Source: Candidatus Saccharimonadota bacterium
GTDB taxonomy: Bacteria; Patescibacteriota; Saccharimonadia; QS-5-54-17
Assembly: GCA_050486185.1 (NCBI GenBank)
Contig: JBJHCT010000003.1
Location: forward strand, 37,500-101,499
DNA length: 64,000 nucleotides
Reading direction: 5' to 3'
Both the position numbers and the translations under genes were made by a program. Of the stretch, positions 823 through 28,269 are shown one piece after another. The notes below the pieces were generated by a model. The model did no database searches, was not told where the DNA came from, and saw only the letters and a list, made by a program, of their open reading frames with translations. Positions within the stretch are counted from its first letter, which is position 1; each line of letters opens with the position of its first letter.

Positions 823-1818
<996 letters not shown>

Positions 1819-2069
1819 CTAGGTATTATATCAGCCCAATAAAGATACATCAGAAAGATATTTAACCAAAAAGAAAAGACTTCCCGCTGGGTGGCTTAGA
1901 AACCACGGTGCCAAAAGTCTTTCATTTATAATATTCTCATACATAAGCACAAGGCGCAAGTAAGCAGCCTCTTTGGTGTGGTTAGTAACTACATGTAATT
2001 AACTACTTGGTAGTTCTCTCTAACAAACAGCTAATTCCTGGTAGAATAAACATAAAGGTAAAACTGCTT

Positions 2070-3386
2070 ATGTCCACTATCAAAGCCTCTAAATTCCAAC
2101 ACCCTGACTCTCCTGATCCTAATCTAGAGACTAATGCTGATGGTTCAATACATGCTAATAAACTTGACGTAGATGAGATAACAACTAGCTCATTAAGACA
2201 CCCTGATTCAATAAATCCAGGACTTTCTATGATGGGTAACGGTGATGTGCATATGAATGGTAATTTGGTGGTGAATAATACGGTTAGCTTTACAGAAATA
2301 GATACGGTTAAAACAGCCTCTATACAGAATCCAAACTCTCAATCAGCTAGCATATCGATAGGGTCTGATGGTGGTGTTGGCATCCTATCGAATATGAGTG
2401 CAACTGGTGATGTCGATATTTCAGGCAGACTATCGGCAGGGTATTTAGATGATGGTATCGCAACGACCCAGCTATATAATTTTTCCGGGACAATTCGCTT
2501 TACCACTTGTGGGAAGACTGGACCGATTGGACCAAGTCTCTCAGATGCGGTTAGTAGCTACTCATTAGAGCCTTTCGCTAGTGAATGGCTTGAGGTTGAT
2601 GGTAGGTTTGAGGTTGTGGGAGGGGTTCAATACTTTAAGATTCCTAAGACAGGCCAATATCAAATCAGGGCCGCTGGGTCTAGGAGCGGTGATTCTAACT
2701 GGGGAGGTTTGGGTATAGATATAACTTCTACGGCAGAGTTTCGTGCCGGTGAAATTATACGTATAGTAGTCGGACAAAAGGGCCAAGGGAATAGTGCAAC
2801 ATATGCTGGCGGTGGTGGAGCTTCAGCCCTAGCTGTTAGGAGGATGGACTTGTGGGTACCTATCTTAATTGCTGGTGGAGGAGCAGGACAGTCAAATAAT
2901 AGTCCAAACTCTTTTAACGCCAACAGGAATGCTTTTGCTCCAGACGTTAGAAGTGGTGACAACTTTGGTGGTAGAGGCAGCTATTACAGTACTAGCTACA
3001 GTACCTCTATAGGTCATAATTGGCCAGGCGGTGGAGGTGGTGGTTGGTCATCAGATGGTTATGACGGTAGGATTAATTACTTTGGCTCCGGTCAACCGAT
3101 AGGTGGTAGGGCTTTGAGTTCAGAATCTCCCATGGGCGGTCGGTATTTTATAGACCCAAACAACACTTATGATGGTGGGTTTGGCGGTGGCGGAGCCACT
3201 GGTGTCGGTGGTGGTGCTGCTGGCGGTGGCGGCGGTTGGTGGGGAGGGAACTCTTCTTATGCAGGTATTGGTGCTAGTTCTGATGATACTAGTCATTTGG
3301 GCGGTGGTAGCTATTCCAGAAACAGTACTTATACTGTCGAGGGGACCAACAACGATCAAGGTTTTGTAGAGATAACTTTAACTTAA
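2070..3386 (+). CDS. Gly-rich paralog family member 1: conserved N-module MSTIKASKFQHPDS…, Gly-rich core, C-terminal …GFVEITLT
   Basis: Long ORF. The ATG at 2070 is chosen because the protein from there aligns with the N-termini of the three downstream paralogs. RBS-like AAAGG sits 11 nt upstream. A QHPDS/RHPDS motif is repeated internally. No N-terminal hydrophobic signal peptide. Confidence 0.75.
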   Translation: MSTIKASKFQHPDSPDPNLETNADGSIHANKLDVDEITTSSLRHPDSINPGLSMMGNGDVHMNGNLVVNNTVSFTEIDTVKTASIQNPNSQSASISIGSDGGVGILSNMSATGDVDISGRLSAGYLDDGIATTQLYNFSGTIRFTTCGKTGPIGPSLSDAVSSYSLEPFASEWLEVDGRFEVVGGVQYFKIPKTGQYQIRAAGSRSGDSNWGGLGIDITSTAEFRAGEIIRIVVGQKGQGNSATYAGGGGASALAVRRMDLWVPILIAGGGAGQSNNSPNSFNANRNAFAPDVRSGDNFGGRGSYYSTSYSTSIGHNWPGGGGGGWSSDGYDGRINYFGSGQPIGGRALSSESPMGGRYFIDPNNTYDGGFGGGGATGVGGGAAGGGGGWWGGNSSYAGIGASSDDTSHLGGGSYSRNSTYTVEGTNNDQGFVEITLT

Positions 3387-3459
3387 ATTAAGAAAGTCTT
3401 TAGTCTTTTTGCTAAACTTAAACATAACTAACTTTTTAAGAAAAGCGACTATATAGCTA

Positions 3460-4908
3460 ATGTCCACTATCAAAGCCTCTAACCTCCAGCACCCTGACTC
3501 ACTAGATCCTAACCTAGAGACTAATGCGGACGGCTCGGTTCATGCTAATAAACTGGATGCCGATGAGTTAACTGCCGGTACTATTAATGCTAGTGGGTTG
3601 AATATTAATGAAGCCAACATTCAAGATTCAATCGATCAATCTATCTCACAGTCCAAGCTAATGACTGAGAACACCCAAACCCAAGACTACACCTTGCAAC
3701 TTAGTGATATAGGTAGAGTAGTAGTGATAGATAGTGAGACAGATAGAACTATCACTATACCTAACTCATCAGCAGTAGATTTTCCCATAGGTTCCGTAAT
3801 TTATCTATACAGACAAGGTGAAGGGAGAGTAGTTGTTACTGGTGCAGAGGGTGTGACGGTTAAGAACGATGGTAATCTTCCTAAAGAAGAAGATATCTAT
3901 GTCCGTAAACGAGCTACTAATGAGTGGGTAGTCTTTCCTTCTTTGTGGAAACCCGTTAACGCTTCAGGAGGTCAGTTCAAGACTGTTACAGTTTCAGACA
4001 CAGTCTATGGGGTTCATATGTTCACTGATATTGGTTCAGCGGAATTTCATATCTTAGATGAAGGTTCTGAAAGTAAACTCGATGTTTTGATTGTCGGTGG
4101 CGGCGGCGGCGGCGGAGGTTACGGTGGCGGCGGCGGTGGAGGTGCCGTGCTTCACTCTGTAGATAGACCAATAGAAAAAAATACTTACCAGATAGTGGTT
4201 GGAGCAGGTGGAGATGCTAGGCCGTGGGTTAATAGCGTGGCTGGCCCTGAAGCTGCGGAGCCTTTCGGCGGGGGTTCATCTAGTGCTTTTGGTTTGGCGG
4301 CTACCGGTGGTGGTGCTGGCGGTAGCTATAACGGTAGAGATGCTGGTCATGGGGCTAATGGTGGTGGTAGTGGGGCTTATGGTAGCGGTGACTTAGGTGG
4401 TACTAGTAACAAGTCATTTCCTGGAGTTGGTGTAGTCCCAGAAGGCGATGATTATACAACGGTCTACGCAGGTAATACTGGTGGTGACGCTAATGTTACC
4501 TCGCCTAACTTCCCTTTAGCCGGTGGAGCTGGTGCCGGAGAGGACGGGCAATCACAACCTAGTAGCTCTGGTAACGGCGGTAATGGTGGTAACGGAGTTA
4601 TGATTAATATTGAAGGTAACGACTACTACTGGGGTGGTGGAGGCGCTGGTGGCGTATATACAACTAACGGAACTGGTGGTAACGGCGGACTAGGTGGCGG
4701 TGGCGGAGGCGGTCAACTTGGATCTGGTGGCGGCTCAGCCCTAAATCCTGGCGGTGATGCTGGATCGCATCTATCTTCTGGCGGGGCCGGCGGCGCTAAT
4801 ACTGGTGGCGGAGGTGGCGGAGGTGGGTACAATAGTAACGGCTCAATTGGTTCACCAGGTGGTTCCGGTATTGTTATTATTCGTTATCCACTAGAAAAAC
4901 CATCGTAA
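3460..4908 (+). CDS. Gly-rich paralog family member 2: N-module MSTIKASNLQHPDS…, poly-Gly core, C-terminal GGSGIVIIRY
   Basis: 482 aa. The first ~45 aa are ~80% identical to members 1 and 4. Long GGGGGGGGYGGGGGG runs. A conserved C-terminal beta-strand-like motif. Confidence 0.8.
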   Translation: MSTIKASNLQHPDSLDPNLETNADGSVHANKLDADELTAGTINASGLNINEANIQDSIDQSISQSKLMTENTQTQDYTLQLSDIGRVVVIDSETDRTITIPNSSAVDFPIGSVIYLYRQGEGRVVVTGAEGVTVKNDGNLPKEEDIYVRKRATNEWVVFPSLWKPVNASGGQFKTVTVSDTVYGVHMFTDIGSAEFHILDEGSESKLDVLIVGGGGGGGGYGGGGGGGAVLHSVDRPIEKNTYQIVVGAGGDARPWVNSVAGPEAAEPFGGGSSSAFGLAATGGGAGGSYNGRDAGHGANGGGSGAYGSGDLGGTSNKSFPGVGVVPEGDDYTTVYAGNTGGDANVTSPNFPLAGGAGAGEDGQSQPSSSGNGGNGGNGVMINIEGNDYYWGGGGAGGVYTTNGTGGNGGLGGGGGGGQLGSGGGSALNPGGDAGSHLSSGGAGGANTGGGGGGGGYNSNGSIGSPGGSGIVIIRYPLEKPS

Positions 4909-4980
4909 CCTTAAGCTACTTACACATAATGAAACCTGCTACACTTTAGGTGTAAGTAAAGAGTCAAAATAGGTATATAA

Positions 4981-6396
4981 ATGTCCACCATCAAAGCCTC
5001 TAAATTCCAACATCCAGACTCAGAAGGCAAGAACATAGAACTAGACTCTAGTGGCAATGCTTCATTTAGTGGGGAGATTAAAGCCTCAAGTATTCGCCAT
5101 CCTAACTCTTCAAACAGCCAAATCACTATGAATATCGATGGCACAGTTAATGTTAGCGGTTTAAGTGTTAACGATGAGGATATTCAAGACACCATATCCC
5201 AAACCAAACTTTCTTCAGAAAAAGAACTTACTCCTGATTTAAACGATGAATACACCCTAGGGCTAGAAGATGCTGGGAAAGTACTGACTTTAGATGATGC
5301 TGATGAAAACAAAGTAGTTACTGTCAATATTCCTAATGATAGTCAAGCTGATTTTGAAGTAGGTTCAACCGTAAAGTTGTATCGCGATAACGAAGCCGGT
5401 ATTACCATCAAAGCTAATGAGAGCGTTAGTATCAAAAGCCCTCTTGCTCCTGGGCCATACTACTTTGTTAGAAAGTATGGTGAACCTCAACTTAGAAAAA
5501 GAGCTGCTAACCAGTGGGTTTTAACCGAAAACGGTCTACTAATCCAGTCCCTACTTGCTGTAGGTGGTAACGAAGTTTTTGAAGAGATTATTAATGGAGC
5601 AGTGTATCGTATCCACGTTTTTACTACCGTAGGCTCTTCACAGGCTTTTGAAGTAGAGCTTGGCGGCGGCGAAGTTGAGTATCTAGTAGTTGCTGGAGGC
5701 GGTGGTGGTGGAATGGTTAACACTGGATCTGTTGGATCCGCAGGGGGTGGAGCCGGCGGATATAGATGTAGCGTCAAAGGAGAATTGTCTGGAGGTAATA
5801 ATCAAGCAGAACCTCCTTTGGTAGTAGAAAAAGGATCTTACACAGTTACAGTGGGAGCAGGAGGAGTAAAAGGTGTAACTACAAATAATCCTGGTGGAGA
5901 CGGTGGTGATTCGACACTAGGATCAGTAGTTAGTTTAGGCGGCGGCGGAGGCGGAGGTACTGGTCACGGTAGAAATGGTGGCTCTGGCGGCGGCGGAGGT
6001 TACGGTGGCGGCTCAGCTGGCAGCGGCACATCCAGTCAAGGCTTTGACGGTGGGGGTGGATCTACAGAAGCCGTTGCTCCCGGATCTGCAGGCGGTGGTG
6101 GAGGTGCATCTGAACCTGGTATTAAACCTGCGACTGCTTCATCAGCGGGGGGTAATGGCGGTGATGGTATAGAGTCAAATATTACAGGATTACCTACCTA
6201 TCGTGCTGGCGGCGGTGGAGGTGGACAGAATAACTCTGCCTGGGGTTCGGGAGGTTTAGGTGGCGGAGCCGATGCTGGTAATGGTAATAGCGGTGAGAAT
6301 AATACTGGCGGTGGCGGAGGTGGAACTCGCTCTGGCTTAGCTAACCCAGGTCAAGGCGGCTCCGGCATAGTCATAGTTCGTTACCGCATCGGTTAA
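4981..6396 (+). CDS. Gly-rich paralog family member 3
   Basis: 471 aa. N-module MSTIKASKFQHPDS plus a second RHPNS repeat. Shares a ~100-aa middle module with member 4 (EYTLxLEDAGKVLTLDD…VVTVNIPND…FEVGS…LYR…PLAPGP). Gly-rich core. C-terminal GGSGIVIVRYRIG. Confidence 0.8.
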   Translation: MSTIKASKFQHPDSEGKNIELDSSGNASFSGEIKASSIRHPNSSNSQITMNIDGTVNVSGLSVNDEDIQDTISQTKLSSEKELTPDLNDEYTLGLEDAGKVLTLDDADENKVVTVNIPNDSQADFEVGSTVKLYRDNEAGITIKANESVSIKSPLAPGPYYFVRKYGEPQLRKRAANQWVLTENGLLIQSLLAVGGNEVFEEIINGAVYRIHVFTTVGSSQAFEVELGGGEVEYLVVAGGGGGGMVNTGSVGSAGGGAGGYRCSVKGELSGGNNQAEPPLVVEKGSYTVTVGAGGVKGVTTNNPGGDGGDSTLGSVVSLGGGGGGGTGHGRNGGSGGGGGYGGGSAGSGTSSQGFDGGGGSTEAVAPGSAGGGGGASEPGIKPATASSAGGNGGDGIESNITGLPTYRAGGGGGGQNNSAWGSGGLGGGADAGNGNSGENNTGGGGGGTRSGLANPGQGGSGIVIVRYRIG

Positions 6397-6451
6397 ACTT
6401 CTTAATAAATAACTAAACCCTGCTAAAATAAACATAAAGGTAAAACCATTT

Positions 6452-7057
6452 ATGTCTACTATTAAAACCTCTAACATCCAACACCCTGACTCACCAGACT
6501 CTAATTTAGAGACCAATGCGGACGGCTCGGTCCATGCTAATAAGTTAGATGCTGATGAATTAACTACTGGGCAAATCAATGCCGATACTATTACAACCGG
6601 CACCATTAATGCTACTGGGATAAATATAGATGATACTAATATCCAAGAAACTATCTCTCAAACTAAACTATCTCTTGAAAAGAATATAGTCCCAAGTGAG
6701 AGCAATGAATACACCCTAGAGCTTGAAGATGCCGGTAAAGTCCTAACTCTTGATGATGAGGATGAAGAAAAAGTAGTGACTGTCAATATTCCTAATGATA
6801 ATGAAGTGAATTTTGAAGTAGGCTCTAATGTTAGTTTGTATCGTGGCGACAATGCCAACATCGAAGTATCTGCTAATAACGGAGTCGATATCAAAACCCC
6901 TCTAGCTCCAGGTCCTAGTAACGCCTCTGGTGGAAATCCAGGTAACGGCACCAATGGCTTAGGCGGTGGAGGCGGTGGATCAAATGGTTATAACGGTAAT
7001 TTAGATGGTGGAGCTGGTGGCTCTGGAATTGTCGTCGTTCGTTATCGCATCGGCTAG
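6452..7057 (+). CDS. Gly-rich paralog family member 4 (short form, 201 aa)
   Basis: Same N-module, the middle module shared with member 3, a short Gly-rich core, and C-terminal GGSGIVVVRYRIG. Its upstream 26 nt are nearly identical to those upstream of member 1. Confidence 0.8.
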   Translation: MSTIKTSNIQHPDSPDSNLETNADGSVHANKLDADELTTGQINADTITTGTINATGINIDDTNIQETISQTKLSLEKNIVPSESNEYTLELEDAGKVLTLDDEDEEKVVTVNIPNDNEVNFEVGSNVSLYRGDNANIEVSANNGVDIKTPLAPGPSNASGGNPGNGTNGLGGGGGGSNGYNGNLDGGAGGSGIVVVRYRIG

Positions 7058-7100: not shown

Positions 7101-8132
7101 ATGATCGCAGTGATTCTAGCTGGAGGTTCTGGTAGCCGGCTTTGGCCTTTGTCGACACCAGATAAGCCGAAGCATTTAATGTCGGTTAATGGTAGCAGTA
7201 CGTTGTTGCAAGATACTCTCGATAGAGCAGCTGTATTTGCTGATGATATTTATGTAGTTACTGATATATCTCATTCAAAGTTAGTAGCAGGTCAGCTCAA
7301 AGGTAGAATCGATGAAGACCATATCATAGTTGAACCTGATCGTCGCGGTACGGCATCGGCAATAGTACTAGCGCTGGCTACACTAGAGTCACTACATGGG
7401 CCCGATATGCCGGTCTGCTTTATGCATGCTGATCACTATATAACCGATAAGCAGGCCTTTGCTGAATCTGTTGAAAAAGCCATTAGTGCTGCTAGGAAAC
7501 ATCAATCCATAGCTCTAATCGGAGTTGAGCCTGACTATCCAGCTACCGGTTTTGGCTATATCAAAAAATCTAAGCAATTATCTGGTGGGGCTTTTGGCGT
7601 AGCTGGGTTTGAAGAGAAGCCAGATCTTGATACTGCCCAAGAGTATCTATCTAGCAGTAAGTATGTTTGGAACCTAGGTTTATTTGCTGCTCCAATCGAT
7701 ATATTTATCAAAGAGATGGATTCACATGCCAAGCACCTGCATCTAGGTCACAAGCAATTAAGTGATCACATCAAAGCGGGTAGGGACTACAGCGATACCT
7801 ATAAATCCATGATCAATGAGGCTATCGATACAGCTTTAATTGAAAAGTCGAGTAATTTAGTAGTGGTACCGGCCGGTTTTGACTGGCTAGATATTGGCTC
7901 CTACAAAGACCTACATGAAGTACTACCTAAAACCGATGAGTATGGCAATACTATAGAGGGCCAAGTGGTAGCTATCGATGCTAAAGACTCGATCATCATG
8001 GAACAGACTGGCGTACCACTAGCTATCTTAGGACTAGATGATGTGGTGGTAGTTAGCACTGATAAGGGTATATTAATTTGTTCTAAAGAGTACTCACAAA
8101 GAATTAAAGAGGCTACCGAGCAAATGCCCTAA
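7101..8132 (+). CDS. sugar-phosphate nucleotidyltransferase (mannose-1-phosphate guanylyltransferase-like)
   Basis: 343 aa. N-terminal IAVILAGGSGSRLWPLS…KPK motif of the NTP-transferase (GlmU/RmlA/ManC) fold. No C-terminal cupin. Confidence 0.75.
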   Translation: MIAVILAGGSGSRLWPLSTPDKPKHLMSVNGSSTLLQDTLDRAAVFADDIYVVTDISHSKLVAGQLKGRIDEDHIIVEPDRRGTASAIVLALATLESLHGPDMPVCFMHADHYITDKQAFAESVEKAISAARKHQSIALIGVEPDYPATGFGYIKKSKQLSGGAFGVAGFEEKPDLDTAQEYLSSSKYVWNLGLFAAPIDIFIKEMDSHAKHLHLGHKQLSDHIKAGRDYSDTYKSMINEAIDTALIEKSSNLVVVPAGFDWLDIGSYKDLHEVLPKTDEYGNTIEGQVVAIDAKDSIIMEQTGVPLAILGLDDVVVVSTDKGILICSKEYSQRIKEATEQMP

Positions 8133-8768: not shown

Positions 8769-9545
8769 CTACGGCTGCAACGTGCCACCGTAAACCTGCC
8801 AAGCTAGGGCTGATTTAGCTACTAGGCTTAAAACTATGTAGGTTTTCTCACCATACAGATAGTCATGCCACTTACCGACTTTTTTGTATTGTAAGATCAT
8901 ATTAATAGCAAAGCTATTAAAGAAGACAAAGATAGATCCATATATCCAGTAGACAAAGGTTGGGATTTCACCGACCCCATAACTATTTGCAATCCAGAAG
9001 TAGATAGCTATGACTATCCAAGGAACAGCTCCGGCCAATACGCCGATATTGTAACTCAACCAGTTGGTTTTAGTAGTGCTTTGGTTGTGAACTTCCATGA
9101 CTAGACCCATGAGATTCATCACGGCAGTGAGGGTAAATATCATGATTAAACTACCTAAGTCGTATATACCTACTAGCATGGCTATAGCTACTATCATGAT
9201 AGAAGCAGATAGAGAGTACTCATACCAGCGAGCCTTATTAATACCCAAGGCCAAATTAGCTTCATATTTCTGCCTATAGATAGTAGCGATTATTAGATGA
9301 GCTGTTGCTGATATAGCGAAGAAAGCAAATATCAACCAGGCTAGGGGCAAGCTAAATAGTTCCGTATTCATTAGAACCAAACTCTGAGTAGTATTATCAA
9401 AGTCTAGATAGGAGCCGTTGATAGGTAGAGCAAAGTCACTACTGAGCCAGGCTATAGCGGTTGCTTGAATGGCGTGCAGTCCAGCCATAGCCAGGTTAAA
9501 TGTTTTCAACCTCTTGAGCTTTGAGCTTATATCTTCAGGATTCAT
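8769..9545 (-). CDS. heliorhodopsin-like 7-TM retinal protein
   Basis: 258 aa. The N-terminus …LKTFNLAMAGLHAIQATAIAWLSSDFALP…, the mid-protein WYEYSLSASIMIVAIAML, and the TM7 motif YIVLSLVAKSALAWQ with a candidate Schiff-base Lys match my recollection of the heliorhodopsin (48C12/TaHeR) family. Confidence 0.65.
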   Translation of the reverse strand: MNPEDISSKLKRLKTFNLAMAGLHAIQATAIAWLSSDFALPINGSYLDFDNTTQSLVLMNTELFSLPLAWLIFAFFAISATAHLIIATIYRQKYEANLALGINKARWYEYSLSASIMIVAIAMLVGIYDLGSLIMIFTLTAVMNLMGLVMEVHNQSTTKTNWLSYNIGVLAGAVPWIVIAIYFWIANSYGVGEIPTFVYWIYGSIFVFFNSFAINMILQYKKVGKWHDYLYGEKTYIVLSLVAKSALAWQVYGGTLQP

Positions 9546-9633
9546 ATGTTTTAGCCTCCAATTTTTAAAATTACTTCTTTAAATCAATTATATACCAGTT
9601 CTTCTACACCTAATATGGCGCCAATGTTGACAA

Positions 9634-9648
9634 GTTCGGTCTATGTTC
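9634..9648 (+). promoter_or_regulatory. GTTC-N7-GTTC direct-repeat (LexA-box-like) operator between -35 TTGACA (9627-9632) and -10 TATACT (9651-9656) of lexA
   Basis: Read directly: TTGACAaGTTCggtctatGTTCgaTATACT. The same motif architecture recurs at 10328-10342 upstream of the next gene. Confidence 0.5.
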
Positions 9649-9663
9649 GATATACTAGTTGCC

Positions 9664-10284
9664 ATGATGAAGCAAACCTTAACTAAAAAACAAAAACAGA
9701 TGTTAGATTATATCCGTGAGTCCTCTAGTGAGTTTGGTTATGCGCCTACCTTTAGAGAGATTATGGATGGGCTTAATTACAGCTCAGTAGCTACAGTAGC
9801 TCAACATATCGATAACCTAGTTAAAAAAGGCTATTTATACAAGCGCAACAACGAAGCTAGATCGATTCAGTTAGTTGAAACTGATGTCGATACAGAAAGC
9901 ACGCATGGCTTACCCGTTATGGGTTGGATCGCTGCTGGTGAGCCAATCACTACTTTAGATAACCCCAACGAGACGCTGCAGGTACCTAACTTTATGATCA
10001 AAAGCGACACTAGCTATGTTCTGCAAGTAAAAGGCGAGAGTATGATTGAAGACGGCATATTAGATGGAGACTACATAGTAGTTAGAGAAAACCGCGTACC
10101 CCAAGATGGTGATGTGGTGGTTGCTATGATCGATGGGGACTCTGCTACCCTAAAACACTTCTACAAGGAAGGCGAACGCATTCGTCTAGAGCCGGCTAAC
10201 TCAGCATATGAGCCTATCTATATCGAAAAGGGCAGATCACTAGAAGTCCAAGGTGTAGTTACTGGAGTAGTTAGAGCCTATTAA
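9664..10284 (+). CDS. lexA: LexA repressor (S24 peptidase)
   Basis: N-terminal wHTH (MMKQTLTKKQKQMLDYIRES…GYAPTFREI). C-terminal S24 domain with GESMIEDGILDGDYIVV and the catalytic Ser/Lys context. Confidence 0.85.
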   Translation: MMKQTLTKKQKQMLDYIRESSSEFGYAPTFREIMDGLNYSSVATVAQHIDNLVKKGYLYKRNNEARSIQLVETDVDTESTHGLPVMGWIAAGEPITTLDNPNETLQVPNFMIKSDTSYVLQVKGESMIEDGILDGDYIVVRENRVPQDGDVVVAMIDGDSATLKHFYKEGERIRLEPANSAYEPIYIEKGRSLEVQGVVTGVVRAY

Positions 10285-10327
10285 ACCTCTTCTAGGTTAA
10301 GACTCCATAAAACATCTAACAATTGAT

Positions 10328-10342
10328 TTTCGTATTCTGTTC
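10328..10342 (+). promoter_or_regulatory. second GTTC-N7-GTTC-like operator (TTTC-N7-GTTC) inside a TTGATT / TATAAT promoter
   Basis: Sequence TTGATTttCgtattctGTTCgtaTATAAT lies 16-35 nt upstream of the HNH-like ORF start. Confidence 0.45.
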
Positions 10343-10357
10343 GTATATAATGTTTTC

Positions 10358-10666
10358 ATGCCAAGAGAAAAAAGAACTTACGCAGACCGTAGAGAAGAGC
10401 TCATAAAAGCGGTCGCTAAAAGACGAAGAAAGCTCAAAGAATTAGCCATTGAGTACAAAGGTGGTAGCTGCCAAGTGTGCGGATATGATAGATATCAAGG
10501 AGCTCTTGAGTTTCATCATCTAAACCCTAAAGAGAAGAAATTCGGCATAGCTGACAAGGGATATACCCGCTCCTGGGATGAAGTAAAAGAAGAGTTAGAT
10601 AAATGCGTTTTGGTTTGCGCTAATTGCCATAGGGAAGTTGGGTTTGGTGGTGTGAAGCTGAGTTAG
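10358..10666 (+). CDS. small HNH-family nuclease-like protein
   Basis: 102 aa, basic N-terminus. The CxxCG…EFHHLNP…CANCH pattern has the HNH/His-Me finger layout. Probable SOS-regulon member, by promoter architecture only. Confidence 0.55.
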   Translation: MPREKRTYADRREELIKAVAKRRRKLKELAIEYKGGSCQVCGYDRYQGALEFHHLNPKEKKFGIADKGYTRSWDEVKEELDKCVLVCANCHREVGFGGVKLS

Positions 10667-10722
10667 TTGTTTACGAGGGGGGATATACAGGCTAGAATAT
10701 ATACTGTCCAATAACTGGATGA

Positions 10723-11030
10723 TCCTGGGTAGCTCAATGGTAGAGCAACTGGCTGTGAAAACGCAGCTTTCCGATCGAAAGACGGATCGAATAACGAGGT
10801 GAACTGCTGGAAGCCTAAGGCCTATTTAGCTAAGGTAATCAGCATCCAAGCCTTGCTACAAGATAGCAAGGAAGGTTCAGAGACTATCTCGCAAGAGAGT
10901 ACTCCACTTACCCTGGAGGAAGCGCCTCGCTCCCTTTTATTTTTGGGAGATGATATAGTCCACGCCCGTTGGAAACAGCGGGATAAGTGTAACCAGTAGG
11001 TTGGCGGTTCGAGTCCGCCCCCAGGAGCCA
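10723..11030 (+). tRNA. tRNA-Asn(GUU) interrupted by a group I intron (exon 1 10723-10756, exon 2 10990-11030, CCA encoded)
   Basis: Acceptor TCCTGGG/CCCAGGA, discriminator G, D-arm GCTC-AATGGTA-GAGC, anticodon stem ACTGG/CCAGT, T-arm GGCGG-TTCGAGT-CCGCC. The spliced loop is cuGUUaa, which matches the classical Asn anticodon loop CUQUUAA. Confidence 0.7.
10757..10989 (+). ncRNA. group I self-splicing intron in the tRNA-Asn anticodon loop, ~233 nt, no ORF
   Basis: P1 is exon gcugU paired to the intron guide sequence Gcagc (10763-10767), giving a U•G wobble at the 5' splice site. P7-like 5' strand ..cAGAGACUAucucg.. and 3' strand ..GAUAUAGUCCacgcc.. (compare Tetrahymena …AGAUAUAGUCGGACC). Terminal omega-G at 10989. 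Confidence 0.65.
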
Positions 11031-11994
11031 AGATTGATTTTTAGAACACTCTGCGATTACATCAAAGGGTGTTTTCAGATTAAAAACCAGCTTTTTGTCT
11101 TGAATTACGAGGTTCGAAAGCAGAAAGCGTAAAAGTTTGGATTTTAGTGCCGCTTTCGAACTTTGGAACAGTTTAGGTGCTTTTGTGGCTATCTCTAACA
11201 GATACGAACTGGTTAACATAAAACTTTTGTCATTGTGCGTTAAAGTAACCAGCTGTTCGTCTAGTTGCTCTTGTCGGGCTTTCAGGTCCTTAACATATTC
11301 GTCATAGTCATTGAGAGTAATACGCCCATCGAGCCTGTCCTCGTACAGCACACGCAGCTTTTTCTGTATTGTATCGTACTCTACACGGGTCTGCTCAATA
11401 GCGTTGGCGTAGTAAAGCTGCTGGTTATCGTGGTGCTTACGAAGCTCGTCAATTACGTATTTAACAATATCCTCGTTCATTTCAAGCTGTCCAACCATAG
11501 CAGCAACCTGCGGCACAAGGTCCTTTTCTTTGATGTGAGCCTGTTTGCACGGACCTTTGCCTTTGCTGCATTGCATATAAACGTTACCTTTGGCTGTATA
11601 AGAGGATATGCTACAACCACAGCTACCGCATTTTAATAAGCCGTTAAACGTATAGTCAGTCTTTTGCTTTTTGGTCCTGTTAGTACCACGCTGGTCATTT
11701 ACAGCCTGTACCTTATCAAACATCTTGCGGCTTATAAGCGGCTCGTATTTATGAGGGTACAGTTTGCCGTTATACCGCATAACGCCATAGTAAAACGGGT
11801 TTTTAAGTATCTGCTCAATCGTGCTTTGACCAATAGGGGTTAGTTTGGCTGTATTATTTCTTAAACCCTCTTTTTTGAGTTGTGCAGCAATGCCTCTATA
11901 AGGTGTGCCGATTAACCGCAGTTCAAATGCCTTTTTAATGTAGCCAGCTCGTTCTTGGTCTAACAGTACGGTTGTTTCTTTGTCGCTAATTCTA
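10908..11994 (-). pseudogene. large serine recombinase (integrase) fragment: recombinase domain, Zn-ribbon and coiled-coil, lacking the N-terminal catalytic resolvase domain
   Basis: Homology to serine integrases runs from …ISDKETTVLLDQERAGYIKKAFELRLIG… through the CGSCG Zn-ribbon and coiled-coil to …FDVIAECSKNQ. The first ~100 codons of the 460-aa ORF are antisense read-through of the adjacent ATPase fragment. The last ~40 codons run over the tRNA-Asn 3' exon. Confidence 0.6.
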
Positions 11995-12510
11995 TGGATT
12001 AATCTGGTGACCGACAGTGCGATGGTAATTCCCTTAGGGATGGAGCCGGGTGAGTCCGATCTGATGGAGCGACCACCGCGTAAGCCCAAAAAACCGATCC
12101 TCGGTAAAGTCGTGATTACACGTATGATCTTTATCGCCAGTATAATGGCGTTGGTGACCTTAAGTCTATTCACCTTCTTCCTGCAGTTTATGAGCGAAGA
12201 GTATGCGCGTACTATCGCTTTTAATGCCCTGGTTGTTATGCAGTGGGCCGATGCCTTTAACGCCCGTTCGCTCTGGCAGTCGATATTCATTCGTATTAAG
12301 ACGATGAATAAGTCGTTCTACGTAGGTTTGACGATTGCTGTTTCGATGCATATTTTAGCCATGTTCGGACCGATGCAAAACCCATTGTCAATCGAAAATG
12401 TCCAGCTCAATCATCTGCTCATCACGAGCCTCATCGCTATCGTGCCGATCATCATCGCCGGAGAGCTTCACAAGTTGATTATCCAGCGTATCGATCCAGA
12501 TTTCCGCTAG
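11980..12510 (+). pseudogene. C-terminal fragment (TM7-10) of a P2-type cation-transporting ATPase
   Basis: LILWINLVTDSAMVIPLGMEPGESDLMERPPRKPK… is the signature of the cation_ATPase_C region. No upstream A, P or N domains. It abuts the integrase fragment with no gap. Confidence 0.6.
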
Positions 12511-12710
12511 CAGCGGGCGCTAACTTGGGTTAGGTCGGCTGCGGCAAGCTGATCAAGCGTTAGCTGATCTACGATGACGACCGTAACTTATTAGTACGAG
12601 TTTGATGGAGCTGAATGGGGAGAGGCGGCCGATAGGTTGGACAATGATCACTGCGGTGTGGGATAATAAGCACAAGCAATCGATAAAAAATAAACAGCCT
12701 TAATACACCT

Positions 12711-14405
12711 ATGGATCTCAGTAGTCTCTTTACACAAATTAGCTTGATTGTAGCCGTCGGCGCAGTGGTTGCAACGGTGATGCGGCTGTTGCGACAACCG
12801 CTGATTATCGGCCATATCGTGACCGGAATCATCGTTGGCCCGATGTTACTAGCTATTGTTGGACCTGGCGGTGAGCTGGGCGGATTGAGTCGAATTGGCA
12901 TCGTATTACTGCTATTTATCGTCGGGCTGGAAATTAGCCTCAAAGTTTTCTCCAAGCTAGGGAGCGTAGTCTTCATAGCAGCACTGGTCCAGGTAGGGGT
13001 GGTCACAACTGTCGGAGCCACGGTGGCTACCGCTTTTGGTTTTGCTGGCGTAGAGAGCTTTATTATCGGCCTCGCCTTAGCTCTTAGCAGTACCTTGATC
13101 AGCGTGAAGTTATTCGGAGACAAGAAGGAGTTGACTCGACTGTATGCACAGATTGCGGTCGGGGTGCTGTTGCTGCAGGATATGGTGGCGACTGGTGCCA
13201 AAGTCTATCTATCTGGTTATGAAAAAAGTGGCTCTTTGATTGACATCCTTTGGTTAGGAGGCCGCGGCCTCGCCGCTTTATTAGCTCTCTACTTAACAGT
13301 CCGTTATATCTTGCCGAAATTGACTCATGCGATCGAGGATACCAAGGAGTTGCTTTTGTTATTCTCCCTGGGGTGGGGGTTGGGGGTGGCGACGCTGTTC
13401 GATATGGTCGGCTTTTCGATAGAAATCGGAGCCTTGCTGGCTGGAGTTAGTCTGGCCTCAGTGCCGTATGTGCACGAGATGGCATCACGGCTCAAGCCGC
13501 TACGCGACTTCTTCATTGTGCTGTTTTTCATCTCGATTGGCAGCACATTACTGCCGGGACAGTTGACGCAAGCGCTGCTGCCAGCAGCAATCTTTACGGT
13601 GCTCGTCTTACTCTTGAAGCCACTGGTGATTTTAATGTGTATGGGGCTACTTGGTTATGCCAAACGGACAAGTTTTAAAACAGCCGTTTCACTGGCCCAG
13701 GTGAGCGAGTTTTCATTAGTCTTAATCGTAGGGGCGCTAAGTGCCGGATTAATCAGTGCCGAAGTCCAGGCTATTATTACGGTAGTGGCACTTGTTACCT
13801 TCGCCGGCTCTACCTACATGATGAAGTATGACAACCAACTCTATAAGATGCTGGAACCACACTTGCGGCTATTTGAACGCAAAACCACTCGGTTAGAGCA
13901 ACCTGCTAGCCTTAGCCATTACCCGGCAGTGCTGTTCGGTTACCGCAAGGGCGGGATGGAGTTTATTCGGACATTTAAGAGCATGGGTAAGCGGTTTGTA
14001 GTGGTAGATTACGACCCAGAAGCTATCGAGCTACTCGAGCGCCAGCAGGTAAACTTGATTTTTGGCGATGCCACCGACCCAGAACTACTGGAAGAGCTAG
14101 GCCTAAACCAAAGCAAGGTCATAGTTTCAACCATTTCTGACCTCAAAACTAACGAGTTTTTAGCCCAGTGGTTGCACATCAATAATCCAGCAGCTGTCTT
14201 TGTCTGTTCGGCCGATAATGCGGCTCAGGCCAGCGCCCTCTATGAGCTGGGGGCTGCGTATGTGATGATGCCGCACTTTATCGGCTCGGAAAAAATCGGC
14301 AGTTTTATGAAGCGTAATGGACTCAAGAAGTCGGAGTTCCATAAATTTCGCCAACGCCACTTGCAGTATCTAGAGACACATTATGCCTTCGAATCAAACA
14401 GCTAA
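12711..14405 (+). CDS. Kef-type monovalent cation:proton antiporter (CPA2) with C-terminal RCK/TrkA-N domain
   Basis: 564 aa. About 12 TM helices of a Na+/H+-exchanger fold, followed by a Rossmann RCK domain (…RFVVVDYDPEAIELL…FGDATDPELLEE…). Confidence 0.8.
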   Translation: MDLSSLFTQISLIVAVGAVVATVMRLLRQPLIIGHIVTGIIVGPMLLAIVGPGGELGGLSRIGIVLLLFIVGLEISLKVFSKLGSVVFIAALVQVGVVTTVGATVATAFGFAGVESFIIGLALALSSTLISVKLFGDKKELTRLYAQIAVGVLLLQDMVATGAKVYLSGYEKSGSLIDILWLGGRGLAALLALYLTVRYILPKLTHAIEDTKELLLLFSLGWGLGVATLFDMVGFSIEIGALLAGVSLASVPYVHEMASRLKPLRDFFIVLFFISIGSTLLPGQLTQALLPAAIFTVLVLLLKPLVILMCMGLLGYAKRTSFKTAVSLAQVSEFSLVLIVGALSAGLISAEVQAIITVVALVTFAGSTYMMKYDNQLYKMLEPHLRLFERKTTRLEQPASLSHYPAVLFGYRKGGMEFIRTFKSMGKRFVVVDYDPEAIELLERQQVNLIFGDATDPELLEELGLNQSKVIVSTISDLKTNEFLAQWLHINNPAAVFVCSADNAAQASALYELGAAYVMMPHFIGSEKIGSFMKRNGLKKSEFHKFRQRHLQYLETHYAFESNS

Positions 14406-14581
14406 TTCCTTCACAAGCTACCGTGTCTAATAATTTGTTTATAACGCAAAAAACACAAGAAGTGTCTAATGAGTAGCTAGTCGAGAGCAATTGAAGTTCT
14501 GATTTTCTCTACTACCGAGAGGGTAAGGCAAACGGGCAACCTTTGTGCGGCACATTCGCTTCATTAAGATATAATGACATT

Positions 14582-15019
14582 ATGAAAGCGATGCAGTTCT
14601 CAATCGATATAAGTACCGGCAGAGAAAAGGTCTGGGATACGCTATGGCAAGATGAAACATTTCGCGAGTGGGCGGGTATTATTGACCCGGGAACACACAT
14701 GGTTGGCGATCTGGAGGAAGGCAATGAAGTACAGTTTATTTCCGGAAATGGGTATGGTGTAACCAGTCTGGTCGAAAAGCAGGTAGTAGGCGAATTTTTG
14801 CTACTCAGGCACCGTGCAGATACGAAAAGTAAGGGCGAGCGAGAGCGTGAAGATCAGTGGACTGGCGGTGAGGAAAGCTATTCGCTAACGGAAAAGGACG
14901 CTACTACGACCTTAACCGTCACATTTGATGTTCCGCCGGCACTGGAAGTGTATTTTAAGGATAACTACCCTAAAGCTTTGGCGCGAGTTAAGCTCTTAGC
15001 CGAAAGAGAGAAGCGGTAG
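14582..15019 (+). CDS. SRPBCC (AHSA1/START-like) domain protein
   Basis: About 145 aa from the internal Met. Sequence …REKVWDTLWQDETFREWAG… is a typical AHSA1-type SRPBCC. Confidence 0.55.
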   Translation: MKAMQFSIDISTGREKVWDTLWQDETFREWAGIIDPGTHMVGDLEEGNEVQFISGNGYGVTSLVEKQVVGEFLLLRHRADTKSKGEREREDQWTGGEESYSLTEKDATTTLTVTFDVPPALEVYFKDNYPKALARVKLLAEREKR

Positions 15020-15104
15020 CTAGGGCTAACTGCTTTAATTGTTTGACCGCCCTCTTATTTTTGGCGACTATACCCTCATAGCAAGTAGATGTTAAAGTGT
15101 CCTC

Positions 15105-15425
15105 ATGGACGCTATAGACCGACAGTTAGAACAAATTCAAAAAGCAGAAGCTAAACACAAAGGCGACAACAAAGCCTTAATCTTATTCTGGGAAGACCTA
15201 TGGAATAAAGGCGGTCTGAAATTTAACGGAGTAAAGTGGACATTCCGCATAGTTGACCTGTACTACAAAGAAAAGCGATATGACGACGCCTGGCGAGTGC
15301 TTAATGACTTTATAAAAACCAAGCCACAATACATTACTAATATTCGCAAATGGCAGATTAAAATACTAAAGAGAGAAAAGAAAGACTACGCTCATATCCA
15401 ACAGCTTTTAGATAACGGTCAGTAG
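15105..15425 (+). CDS. hypothetical protein
   Basis: 106-aa ORF followed by a hairpin and T-run. Confidence 0.45.
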   Translation: MDAIDRQLEQIQKAEAKHKGDNKALILFWEDLWNKGGLKFNGVKWTFRIVDLYYKEKRYDDAWRVLNDFIKTKPQYITNIRKWQIKILKREKKDYAHIQQLLDNGQ

Positions 15426-15454
15426 TATGCTAAAATATACTAAGTAAAACGCGT

Positions 15455-15490
15455 CCCAAACGGAGTAATCCGTCGGGGCGTTTTTTTATT
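15455..15490 (+). terminator. putative intrinsic terminator (hairpin ACGGA-GTAA-TCCGT, extended by CCC/GGG, then T8)
   Basis: Sequence aaaacgcgtcccaaacggagtaatccgtcggggcgttttttt lies directly after the 15105-15425 ORF. Confidence 0.55.
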
Positions 15491-15523
15491 GCCAAAATTC
15501 GTGTGGTGCCCTCATGAATTTAT

Positions 15524-15599
15524 GGGGCAGTAGTTTAACAGGTAAAATTTACGGTTTGGCATCGTAAGATACGGGTTCGAGTCCCGTCTCGCTCCACCA
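15524..15599 (+). tRNA. tRNA-like gene (Pro/UGG-like anticodon loop) with a mismatched acceptor stem; probable pseudo-tRNA or integration-site remnant
   Basis: D-arm GTTT-AACAGGTA-AAAT, anticodon arm TACGG-tttggca-TCGTA and T-arm ACGGG-TTCGAGT-CCCGT are all well formed, and CCA follows. The 5' acceptor GGGGCAG pairs only 5 of 7 with the 3' strand CTCGCTC. Confidence 0.35.
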
Positions 15600-15642
15600 G
15601 TAGAATATCCAAACTAGAAAGAGACCCTTTCAGGTCTCTTAA

Positions 15643-15656
15643 CGGTTTGGCATCGC
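15643..15656 (+). repeat. 14-nt direct repeat ACGGTTTGGCATCG (second copy; first copy 15551-15564 inside the tRNA-like anticodon arm)
   Basis: Exact duplication read in the sequence, 92 nt apart. The second copy is followed by the 8-bp hairpin CGCTATGC-acattgt-GCATAGCG. Confidence 0.6.
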
Positions 15657-15811
15657 TATGCACATTGTAGCATAGCGCAGATGGTTTATGCACCGCTTTT
15701 CGCGGACGCACGCATAGCTATTGCCAAAATTAAGGAGTTAAAAGTACAGTGACAACAGAGGTAAGTATATCCTTGACAACAAGTATACTAAAAGATATAC
15801 TTATAAGTACG

Positions 15812-16660
15812 ATGAGATACACGATAACCCAATTCAACAAAGACTTTCCAAACGATGATGTATGTCTTGATACTATTTTTGAGAATCGCTACGGCGATGT
15901 CAAAGACTGCCCGAAGTGTGGCGTAGTCGACACGAAGTTCTACCGTGTCAAAGGGCGCAAGTGCTACGCCTGTATGCACTGTGGCTATCAACTGCATCCT
16001 TTAGCCGACACTATCTTTCATAAGTCAGCTACACCACTTAAAAGTTGGTTTTATGCAATATATCTATTTTCAGTATCGAAGAATGGCGTATCAGCTAAAG
16101 AGCTAGAGCGACACTTAGGAGTAACTTACAAGACTGCACACCGCATGGCAGCACAAATCCGCAAACTCATGAAAGACAATGAAGATCCGCTCAGTGGCGA
16201 AGTAGAAGTAGACGAAACCTATATTGGTGGTCGCCGTAAACTAGCACAGAAATTTGATAATAAAAGCGTAGTATTCGGTATGGTAGAACGGGACGGATTT
16301 GCGAAGACTAAACATGTTATTAGCTCTGGTAGCCGCGTTCTACTGCCAGTGATCGTTAAAGGGGTAGCGCCAAAGTCTAGTATCCACAGTGACGAGTGGA
16401 GAGCATACAAAACACTTTCAAGACGAGGCTACACTCACACCACAGTCAATCACTCTAAATTAGAGTACGTACGCGGTGCAACTCACACCAACACCATAGA
16501 GGGCTATTGGAGCCAACTAAAACGTTCTATCGACGGGACTTACCACTCTGTTTCGCCGAAGTATTTACAGGCTTACCTTGACGAGTTTTCTTTTCGTTAT
16601 AACTTGAGGGGTTCAGCTGTTTATCCTGTTCTTTTGGGACGGGCGTCGACGCCTTTTTAA
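15812..16660 (+). mobile_element. IS1595-family (ISXO2-like) DDE transposase gene
   Basis: N-terminal Zn-ribbon CPKCG…CYACMHCG and the hallmark …EVEVDETYIGG… of the IS1595/ISXO2 transposase domain. The internal Met at 15812 is chosen as start. Terminal inverted repeats could not be convincingly identified by eye. Confidence 0.7.
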
Positions 16661-17418: not shown

Positions 17419-18264
17419 CTATTTTTTAACTACTTTAGCCAGGGACGACTCACGAAATTCACGGGTAAAAGCCAGTATTCCAGCTACTAGCATTGTTATA
17501 CCCATTAGTTCAATACTTTCTTCAAGTACCGAGTCGGTAAACATAAAGTAGGTAAAGCCTTGGGTTCTACCAGGCAAGAGCGGTAGATTGCTACCAAAAA
17601 ACAGGATATCGAAAGCTCCACCGATGATGACGTAGGAATGGAATAGGTTGCTCATCAGTGATCCACCAGCGGCCATGGCATAAAGAATAAAGCCTATTAA
17701 AAAGAGCTTACGAGCACTAACAGCTCGCCAGGCCTGGCGCCAGTACCGAGCAAAAGCATAGACTGGTACTGCTGCTAGAGCTAGAAAATAGGGAGCTTCA
17801 ACTACAAAACTGTGTCTTAAACCAAAAATCTCACCACCAAAAGCCCTTTCAGCTTCACGGTTTAGCACATGTCTAATATCACCAGCATCCTCAATCAACA
17901 TCAGGCCAAACCCGATAGCAATCAAAAAGAAGAACTTAGCGGCGTCTTTCTCGCCGCTAGCACTTAATCTACCGGCCAAAAACCCCGATATACCAGCGGC
18001 AAAGGCCAACATAAACCACTGAGTCCATTCTACTGGTCTATCGTTAAAGAGAAATGTCCAGGCCGGAGCTCTTAATTCAACACTGATCCAGCCTAAGATA
18101 TCGATTGATATGAATATAGCCCAGGCTATAGCTATCCAAGTGGCAATAGCTAGTACTACGACTTTAGGTCTGATATTAAATAGCTTGGGCCAGGTTGTGT
18201 CTATTTGATTTGGCTGATTTGATTGGTCTTTTACATCTTTCATAGATTGCCTAAAATTATACAC
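17419..18264 (-). CDS. integral membrane protein (hypothetical)
   Basis: 281 aa with multiple hydrophobic helices. Confidence 0.5.
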   Translation of the reverse strand: MYNFRQSMKDVKDQSNQPNQIDTTWPKLFNIRPKVVVLAIATWIAIAWAIFISIDILGWISVELRAPAWTFLFNDRPVEWTQWFMLAFAAGISGFLAGRLSASGEKDAAKFFFLIAIGFGLMLIEDAGDIRHVLNREAERAFGGEIFGLRHSFVVEAPYFLALAAVPVYAFARYWRQAWRAVSARKLFLIGFILYAMAAGGSLMSNLFHSYVIIGGAFDILFFGSNLPLLPGRTQGFTYFMFTDSVLEESIELMGITMLVAGILAFTREFRESSLAKVVKK

Positions 18265-27351: not shown

Positions 27352-28269
27352 ATGAAATATATCAGACAATTAAAAACCATTTTAGAAGCAGCCTCGTGGT
27401 CTCAAGAAGAGCTAGCTAAGAATTTGGGCGTGTCTTTCCCAACCGTTAACTCATGGATTAATAGTCGCTCAAAACCACGCAAAAACTCTATTTTAAAGAT
27501 AGATAAACTATATATGGATATAGTAGGTGTTGATAGTGTTAGTGAAGATGATCTCAGCACGGCAAAGCAAGAAGCCCTAAACAGTGTTGTTGATATAAAT
27601 AATCTGATTAAAGATTCAGAGGCTCTAGATAAGTTAACGCTTTATCTGACCTACCACACCAACACAATTGAAGGTAGTACGATGACGATATCTGATGTGC
27701 AAAATGTTATTTTTGAAGACAAGGTACTGAGCAATAGGACCTCTATTGAGCAAGCTGAAGCTCGCAATCATCAGGCAACACTAAACTGGCTTCTTAGTAA
27801 GATAGTAGATGAGGAAGATGACTTTGTTGTAGATGAAGAGCTAATAATAGGCATACACTTACGACTCATGAACGGCATCATTAGTGATGCTGGGGAGTAC
27901 AGGAAGCATTCAGTTAGGATTATGGGTTCTTCAGTTCCCTTGGCTAATCCTGTTAAGATACCAGACTTAATAACTAGTTTATCGGAATATATCAAGAACT
28001 CACCTGATGACGTAGTTGCTCACTTGACCAAGACGCATGCTGATTTTGAGAAGATACACCCTTTTAGCGATGGTAATGGGCGAGTTGGCAGGTTGCTGAT
28101 GTTAGCGCAGGCGCTAAAAGCAGGAATACTACCCCCTATAATTAGCAAAGAGCGTAAGTATGCGTACTACAAGTACCTTGAACTTGCTCAAACTAAATCA
28201 CAATATGGGTCGTTAGAACTTTTTGTATGTGAATCTATACGCTTCAGTAAGAATTTGCTCGAAGTATAA
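27352..28269 (+). CDS. Fic-family protein with N-terminal XRE-type HTH
   Basis: 305 aa. HTH …ELAKNLGVSFPTVNSWIN… and the canonical Fic motif HPFSDGNGRVGR. Confidence 0.8.
   Translation: MKYIRQLKTILEAASWSQEELAKNLGVSFPTVNSWINSRSKPRKNSILKIDKLYMDIVGVDSVSEDDLSTAKQEALNSVVDINNLIKDSEALDKLTLYLTYHTNTIEGSTMTISDVQNVIFEDKVLSNRTSIEQAEARNHQATLNWLLSKIVDEEDDFVVDEELIIGIHLRLMNGIISDAGEYRKHSVRIMGSSVPLANPVKIPDLITSLSEYIKNSPDDVVAHLTKTHADFEKIHPFSDGNGRVGRLLMLAQALKAGILPPIISKERKYAYYKYLELAQTKSQYGSLELFVCESIRFSKNLLEV

Follow-up and report, generated by a model that had tools for sequence, protein, structure and literature searches.

An orphan cluster of putative phage-type tail-fibre genes in a Saccharimonadales chromosome

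Introduction

The phage proteins Pam3 gp24 and Bxb1 gp33 are the closest solved structures to the proteins M1–M4, which are encoded by an array of four consecutive + strand genes (2070–7057) in a Candidatus Saccharimonadota bacterium (GenBank assembly GCA_050486185.1). The stretch analysed, called here the window, is 64,000 nt long (contig JBJHCT010000003.1, positions 37,500–101,499 of the forward strand); all coordinates are window positions. In gp24 of cyanophage Pam3 (PDB 7YPX and 7YFW), a tumour necrosis factor (TNF)-like plus glycine-rich tip recognises the receptor, and the N-terminus docks to the baseplate (PMC9608196). The 'tail wing brush' gp33 of Bxb1 and a subdomain of its tail spike gp29 (PDB 9D93) contain polyproline II (PPII) helical bundles like those of S16 gp38 (PMC13243192). 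Bxb1 gp33 decorates the tail tip as an accessory structure and is anchored by gp30 and gp31; deletion of gene 30, which encodes the wing base needed for gp33 assembly, causes only a modest growth defect (PMC12646305). Branched systems of receptor-binding proteins (RBPs) in Ackermannviridae and Klebsiella phages, in the accounts available, comprise several fibre or spike genes with a common N-terminal anchor.

The array is read, with a probability of about 0.75, as a cluster of phage-type tail-fibre (receptor-binding protein) genes, orphan in the Saccharimonadales chromosome. Identity of the products as phage-type fibres is well supported at the protein level. The array would have originated by capture of a phage multi-fibre cassette.

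Domain composition of the array proteins

Distal domains of two families, preceded by a common N-terminal module (N-module). M2 and M3 match the Pfam family PF21722 (Gly_rich_2): M2 at 54.6 bits (E 2e-14; profile positions 15–225 of 226; cutoff 24.3) and M3 at 71.0 bits (profile positions 4–226). The match of M4 (26.5 bits) covers only profile positions 172–226 and is a fragment. M1 has no PF21722 match in the Pfam scan. Against PF12810 (ALK_LTK_GRD) it reaches 12.5 bits (E 0.15; gathering cutoff 24.5 bits). A profile built from 40 M1 relatives retrieves LTK and ALK glycine-rich domain (GRD) chains from the PDB at E 3e-16 to 1e-10, and several of the 353 homologues of M1 carry PF12810. Judged by these profiles, the M1 domain is a predicted homologue of the ALK/LTK GRD, though M1 itself lies below the curated PF12810 threshold. 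Alignment of the M1 family with the M3 family by hhalign gives no significant similarity except in the last strand. The four genes are paralogous in the N-module only, because their distal domains belong to two sequence families without significant profile–profile similarity; the original prediction, made from the sequence alone, had called them four paralogous Gly-rich proteins.

M1 matches phrog_22713 (5e-24). M2 matches phrog_2295 (9e-46) and, on aa 19–159, phrog_8780, annotated 'minor tail protein' (1e-19). Residues 22–182 of M3 match 'minor tail proteins' of Gordonia phages by tblastn. The AlphaFold2 monomer model of M3 has a predicted local distance difference test (pLDDT) score of 83 overall and >90 throughout residues 190–471. 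Foldseek searches with the distal domain rank phage entries first, and the fold of the array proteins matches solved phage fibre or tail-tip proteins. A search of PDB sequences with the M3-family profile returned none at E ≤ 1, and NCBIfam gave no match for the array proteins. A collagen-like protein was considered and rejected: there is no Pfam Collagen match, and the GGGGG and GGxGG blocks lie between beta-strands of a compact, high-confidence domain and are not G-X-Y triplets.

Middle module of about 95 aa, present in M2, M3 and, truncated, in M4; the copy of M2 is 49% identical to that of M4. Absent from M1. The original prediction had assigned it to M3 and M4 only. A hidden Markov model (HMM) of the N-module plus middle module, run against 1.84 billion representative proteins, gave 6989 matches, nearly all on the middle module, which elsewhere is repeated in tandem or stands as a domain at the C-terminal end of small proteins. 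Two giant metagenomic proteins contain 22 (P0241, 3206 aa) and 16 (P0242, 2401 aa) tandem copies. No Pfam model exists for this module.

N-module with the start MSTIK.S..QHPDS in all four proteins. A 60-nt stretch of it has 77–87% nucleotide identity in all four genes, close to the conservation of about 80% first described; M3 shares strongly only about the first 14 residues with the other copies (54–65% amino acid identity over 26 aa). Internal RHPDS/RHPNS repeats occur in M1 and M3, as had been noticed earlier, and a third repeat in M1 reads IQNPNS. In the same HMM search of 1.84 billion proteins, proposed with the original prediction, the full N-module of about 40–60 aa was seen only in the window proteins, in the relative P0002 and, more distantly, in P0298. 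Its first ~28–33 residues, MST[IL][KR]...IQH..S..PNI.L..DG.V, recur in more relatives, always from residue 1. This start precedes the middle module in P0272, P0283 and P0294, and the M1-type domain in P0123, P0166, P0178 and P0159. Pattern scans for the N-module and for stretches of M3 and P0002 in genome, viral and metagenome contigs yielded no confirmed relative.

The N-modules of M1, M2 and M4 differ by 0.06–0.11 nonsynonymous (dN) and 0.96–2.0 synonymous (dS) substitutions per site. With dN low and dS about 1–2, the amino acid sequence has been kept by selection through old duplications and not by recent conversion. The N-module was under purifying selection during divergence of the paralogs.

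These domains bear on the original reading of the array as an undescribed self-assembling surface filament or S-layer-like glycoprotein, or as recombination cassettes for antigenic variation. Conserved termini with differing interiors, the adjacent nucleotide-sugar genes and repeats of 60–166 nt between the copies, which could support recombination, agree with it. The interiors, described at first as variable glycine cores of a family not assigned to Pfam, are folded domains and not hypervariable low-complexity sequence: M2–M4 match PF21722, M1 is related to ALK_LTK_GRD, and PHROG matches are many. Domains of these known families and folds form fibre tips, not polymers. A flagellin, pilin or S-layer polymer was rejected, as the proteins have no hydrophobic N-terminus, the only Pfam match of this class (SlpA_N, 16.3 bits) is below its cutoff, and NCBIfam gives no match. 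No export signal is present, in agreement with the original statement on Sec: M1–M4 have no hydrophobic segment (maximum Kyte-Doolittle 19-residue score ≤1.2, against 2.3–2.7 in membrane controls), and neither they nor M5, a fifth fibre-like protein of the window, have a signal peptide, transmembrane (TM) segment, LPXTG or twin-arginine motif. A sortase substrate was likewise rejected, since LPXTG is missing from M1–M5, although a sortase gene is located at 47173–47850. For the cassettes, gene conversion that still goes on is disfavoured by a dS of about 1–2 between copies; silent cassettes, partial cassettes, invertase sites and an expression-site arrangement were not seen, and the sole nearby recombinase is truncated. 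The filament and cassette readings are very improbable. The modular build seen at the outset, a conserved terminus with an exchangeable remainder, is upheld.

Loci of relatives

Most relatives for which the context was read are located in phage structural regions. Contig L060 is a phage contig with an r1t-type holin and a 1509-aa protein with many tail-fibre PHROG matches. It carries three consecutive fibre genes with a common N-terminus (9618–14066), the first with an ALK-GRD-like domain and the next two with Gly_rich_2, which is the order of M1, M2 and M3; the first is 61% identical to M1 over aa 134–437. On the T4-like contig L064 (593–3572), genes for gp13, gp14, gp15 and terminase accompany P0159, which starts with MSTLKTVGIQH and has an M1-type domain; a Gly_rich_2 fibre gene and a 122-aa open reading frame (ORF) come after it. 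On another T4-like contig, L070 (8213–10960), with gp13, gp14, gp15, terminase and sheath genes, a Gly_rich_2 gene is neighbour to an ORF of 123 aa and to a gene of M1 type. Contig L071 has two PF21722 genes beside a sheath gene, gp19 and a weak T4-baseplate match. Genes with the M1-type domain occur on at least 26 IMG/VR contigs. The pairing of ALK-GRD-like and Gly_rich_2 domains seems to be a recurrent phage unit. A conserved ORF of about 123 aa (MAHFA...) accompanies the fibre genes in L060 and L064; by its position it is probably a fibre chaperone. The 123-aa ORF of L070 lies in the corresponding place.

Relatives from cultured phages are mostly actinophage proteins (Gordonia, Streptomyces and Actinomycetia phages); Synechococcus phages also match. 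The actinophage matches are weak evidence because the cultured-phage collection is heavily biased towards actinophages. P0002 is a full-length relative, 56% identical in pairwise alignment, on a 264-kb contig of another genome. The gene for P0298 (contig L062) adjoins a sigma-70 gene and is flanked by two other ORFs rich in glycine. When N-termini are classed by a crude hydrophobicity rule, those of 16 of 119 matches of the M1 family and 5 of 119 of the M3 family are signal- or TM-like; the remainder are hydrophilic, many of them with an N-terminus of phage style.

Several observations weigh against the tail-fibre reading. The closest relative of the M1 domain, P0122 (59% identical; L072, 7490–8587), has a clear signal peptide and is encoded on a cellular contig of 70% GC, next to PilZ and PilT-like genes (the latter read from its translation). 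The M1-type domain is therefore not exclusive to phages and occurs also in secreted cellular proteins. A Pfam and PHROG scan of most, not all, window ORFs of 150 aa or more detected no gene for capsid, terminase, portal, tube, sheath, baseplate or lysis, and the genes directly beside the array are cellular (rmlBCD and a manC-like gene). The two MAHFA... ORFs have no tblastn match in the window below E 5, and there is no small ORF inside the array. Codon usage of M1–M5, with Gly codons excluded, resembles that of the remaining window; this leaves no trace of recent import and is uninformative for phage versus cell. The dN/dS of the paralogs could date from a phage before capture, and is then no proof of function in this genome. 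The N-module of M3 is modelled at a pLDDT of 39–69, so that its docking role is an analogy; such low model confidence is presumably common in parts that fold only within an oligomer.

Because virion genes and the chaperone-like ORF are missing among the ORFs searched, the array is classified as phage-type proteins in an orphan chromosomal cluster and not as a prophage. The original prediction had been set against phage tail-fibre families with flanking prophage genes; the families were found, and prophage genes were not detected in the ORFs scanned.

Description of the array

Four + strand ORFs with the exact coordinates 2070–3386, 3460–4908, 4981–6396 and 6452–7057, encoding 438, 482, 471 and 201 aa; positions, strand and lengths are as first reported. 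Likeness between the copies is not due to chance, since tblastn among them gives E 1e-16 to 1e-48. The Logan assembly of run SRR31311414 (L069), which is independent, is 100% identical over 1159–5716 and spans the rmlB-M1-M2-M3 junction; the junction of rmlB and the array is therefore not an assembly artefact.

M1, 438 aa (2070–3386, +). N-module at aa 1–40 (2070–2189), followed by two more degenerate N-module repeats to about aa 110. Distal domain ALK/LTK-GRD-like, TNF-like plus glycine-rich, at aa ~134–438 (2469–3383), with the C-terminus GFVEITLT. ATG at 2070, rather than TTG at 2007, is the likely start, because all four genes then begin with five identical residues.

M2, 482 aa (3460–4908, +). 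N-module at aa 1–40 (3460–3579), middle adaptor module at aa ~76–160 (3685–3939), TNF-like plus Gly_rich_2 domain at aa ~169–482 (3964–4905).

M3, 471 aa (4981–6396, +). N-module with two repeats at aa 1–63 (4981–5169), middle adaptor module at aa ~90–182 (5248–5526), TNF-like plus Gly_rich_2 domain at aa ~193–471 (5557–6393).

M4, 201 aa (6452–7057, +). N-module at aa 1–40 (6452–6571), truncated middle module at aa ~86–155 (6707–6916), Gly_rich_2 remnant in the last ~46 aa (6917–7054). Alignment with M3 runs to ...KTPLAPGP and resumes just for the final ~45 residues. The TNF-like part is missing altogether, as is the final strand of the middle module, and of PF21722 no more than the last ~50 positions are left. 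Looks, by this alignment, like an M3-type gene after an in-frame internal deletion of ~270 aa. The C-terminal strand GGSGIV(I/V)(I/V)RY, ascribed originally to all four proteins, is present in M2–M4, and M1 ends in DQGFVEITLT.

Repeats extend beyond the coding regions. Family D2 comprises two 166-nt copies, 2021–2186 and 6403–6568, which are 78% identical, so that M1 and M4 share about 50 nt upstream. M3 and M4 share a 152-nt stretch, 80% identical, within the middle module. The duplicated upstream sequence of M1 (2021–2069, +) has a promoter-like CTAACA-16-TAGAAT with an extended −10 TG at 2020–2047, and that of M4 (6403–6451, +) a promoter-like TTAATA-16-TAAAAT at 6402–6429. In a consensus scan, promoter- and terminator-like sites are no commoner than in shuffled sequence, and the promoter-like sites are leads only.

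Chromosomal context

Chromosome of a Patescibacterium. Arginyl-tRNA synthetase (ArgRS; 22094–23905) finds its closest match (65% identity) in a Candidatus Saccharimonadales metagenome-assembled genome, and the next matches, at 44–49%, are from other Saccharibacteria; the guess of a reduced-genome bacterium was thus correct. The window is ordinary chromosome, with aminoacyl-tRNA synthetases, BipA, nusB, rnc, rpsP, trmD, LexA, TatC, sortase, heliorhodopsin, mazEF and two Fic proteins. The array is flanked as first described. On the left are rmlD (N-terminus, 167–1, −; translation MAELITGANGQLGRAL...NAAAY), rmlC (173–754, −) and rmlB (823–1815, −), which are cellular and not phage genes and are transcribed away from the array. 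On the right, 44 nt after M4, a mannose-1-phosphate guanylyltransferase-like gene (7101–8132, +) encodes NTP_transferase and ManC beta-helix domains (PF00483, 6e-40; PF22640, 9e-14).

This setting bears on a second reading, in which the array is a prophage relic or cargo with no function for the cell: a remnant host-recognition module, or one that acts in trans for a phage, or for a particle resembling one, with genes elsewhere. Phage fibre loci have the same modules in the same order and the same N-terminal motif, export signals are missing, M4 resembles a deletion derivative, and mobile debris lies 3–9 kb downstream (HNH gene, group I intron, 5'-truncated serine recombinase, IS1595, tRNA-Pro and a GC-rich Na+/H+ exchanger gene). 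The four frames are, however, uninterrupted although dS between the copies is saturated. No virion gene was found among the ORFs scanned in the 57 kb rightward, and the 2 kb leftward are cellular genes; between the array and the debris lie manC, mazEF, heliorhodopsin and lexA, and a second orphan fibre-like locus is located 24 kb away. Relic or cargo status is a tentative alternative, of less than even probability.

The second locus is M5, 322 aa (31442–32410, +), which matches PF21722 over its full length (26.5 bits, 7.6e-6) as well as phrog_863 (1.7e-47) and phrog_6202, 'tail fiber protein' (2e-22). Its N-terminus (MPRLPIPGQDSGTWGDILNEFL) is of phage type and unlike that of M1–M4; aa 1–35 are 66% identical to Streptomyces phage proteins. 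The C-terminal end is GRAGIVIIEIYR. M5 is directly downstream of the gene for a secreted, membrane-anchored cutinase-domain protein (28809–31349).

The cutinase-domain protein has 846 aa, with a signal/TM N-terminus, PF01083, an acidic linker and a C-terminal TM anchor; it matches also phrog_102, 'endolysin' (1e-13). The cutinase part has no tblastn match among cultured phages. A LysB-like identity was dropped as evidence, as it rested on one PHROG profile match only.

In a third reading the genes are domesticated adhesins, phage fibres by which an epibiotic Saccharibacterium recognises the surface of its own, probably actinobacterial, host. Deletion bias is strong in this genome type, and despite it five intact fibre-like genes persist at two loci without virion genes. 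Both loci adjoin envelope functions (rmlBCD plus the manC-like gene; the secreted cutinase), codon usage is native, the full-length relative P0002 lies in another genome, on a contig of 264 kb, secreted cellular proteins contain versions of the M1 domain, and the cultured-phage relatives are mostly from actinophages, a point weakened by the actinophage-heavy collection. On the other side, M1–M5 have no export signal, whereas the cellular homologue P0122 bears a signal peptide, and the N-terminus is of the T4-like phage fibre type. Domestication is rather unlikely on this evidence. Under it, the four tips would broaden or tune the host range and the N-module would dock on a surface structure of the epibiont, which is doubtful to the same degree. 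Its most specific form is less probable still: it is unlikely that the epibiont attaches to an actinobacterial host by the captured multi-RBP cassette, with its one anchor and several polyglycine-II tips akin to those of actinophage tails, together with M5 beside the secreted cutinase, without a classical signal peptide.

On the narrower question of retention, the evidence leans slightly towards selection, as a streamlined genome still contains, at two loci, five orphan fibre-like genes that are intact.

Other features of the window are as follows. A full-length group I intron (RF00028) is located at 10746–10982 (+; 69 bits, E 1.6e-15), with a free-standing HNH endonuclease ORF (10358–10666) just upstream; the end of a recombinase ORF lies antisense to the 3' part of the intron. 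This large serine recombinase ORF (−, within 10908–12510) has Recombinase and Zn-ribbon domains and is 5'-truncated, since the N-terminal resolvase domain is missing. It overlaps a + strand fragment that resembles, by eye, the C-terminus of a P-type ATPase, and the patch consists of gene debris. The region 12711–16660 is probably horizontally acquired; its Na+/H+ exchanger gene stands out in composition (GC 0.50 and GC3 0.57, against ~0.42 and ~0.38 in the window) and is followed by tRNA-Pro (15524–15595) and an IS1595-family transposase gene (15749–16660). A heliorhodopsin gene (8769–9545, −; PF18761, E 3e-96) adjoins a mazEF pair and lexA. A GLUG-motif protein of 788 aa (18383–20749, +) has a signal-peptide-like N-terminus and is a candidate surface protein, with no PHROG or PADLOC match. 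PADLOC gave none for M1–M5, the adjacent manC-like gene and the unlinked ORFs 17419–18264 and 18383–20749. Two Fic/DOC-domain proteins are encoded at 27352–28269 (+; with an N-terminal helix-turn-helix) and 41476–42459 (+). A 188-aa ORF (46280–46846, +) has weak tape-measure PHROG matches (best 2.8e-7), which composition may explain, and stands alone among cellular genes.

Proposed mode of action and significance

Read as phage-type tail fibres, the array proteins would act as follows, by analogy with phage fibres. The N-terminal module of ~40 aa would trimerise and plug each protein into a common partner. Phage adaptor domains connect the anchor with the part that binds the receptor; in M2–M4 the ~95-aa module, a predicted beta-sandwich, would take this place after the N-module. 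The distal TNF-like beta-sandwich with projecting glycine-rich polyglycine-II strands would be the receptor-binding tip, available in an ALK/LTK-GRD-like version in M1 and a PF21722 version in M2 and M3, and almost entirely deleted in M4. One anchor with alternative tips may thus provide several binding specificities on one docking site, as in multi-RBP phages. Trimerisation, docking and ligand binding are each putative for the array proteins.

To our knowledge, little is established about the way in which ultrasmall Patescibacteria choose and bind host cells, and the factor mainly implicated so far is the type IV pilus (PMC9894109, PMC11623550). No account of such proteins came up in a literature search on Saccharibacteria combined with fibre or glycine-rich terms. 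The interest of the cluster lies in the organism, an epibiont with poorly known host-recognition machinery. If the cell uses the cluster, it would be a second, phage-derived recognition system with swappable specificities, in a reduced genome that retains only the host-recognition part of a phage. If the cluster is a relic, it marks a past phage infection of a lineage with few known phages and supplies sequences for finding such phages. Either way, ALK/LTK-type and PF21722 domains travel as a pair in many phage fibre loci, and an adaptor domain of ~95 aa without a Pfam model is very widespread (about 7000 representative proteins).

Comparison with described systems

In Pam3 gp24 the N-terminal shaft is alpha-helical, and the protein depends on the chaperone gp25 encoded next to it; the window proteins have instead a beta-rich N-module and, except in M1, an adaptor domain. 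Pam3 gp24 is encoded in a phage genome, whereas the array is not, and the array lacks the small ORF seen beside the fibre genes in two related phage loci. Bxb1 gp33, unlike the array proteins, has no shared N-module. The ALK/LTK GRD (PF12810; PDB 7NX0, 7LRZ and others) has the same TNF-like plus polyglycine-II architecture as the M1 domain; unlike M1, it serves a eukaryotic receptor tyrosine kinase as its cytokine-binding ectodomain. The middle module shares 9–16% sequence identity with adaptor domains of the T4-like gp34 proximal fibre, of gp9 and of CBA120 TSP4 (residues 1–250/335), and unlike these it is found also as tandem repeats or at the C-terminus of metagenomic proteins. In the three-gene fibre locus of L060, the shared N-terminus is a different module (MPIxFPxxP...), and the genes lie among phage structural and lysis genes, whereas the array does not. 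Multi-RBP phage loci and the array are alike in their tandem genes, shared N-terminus and differing C-terminal binding domains.

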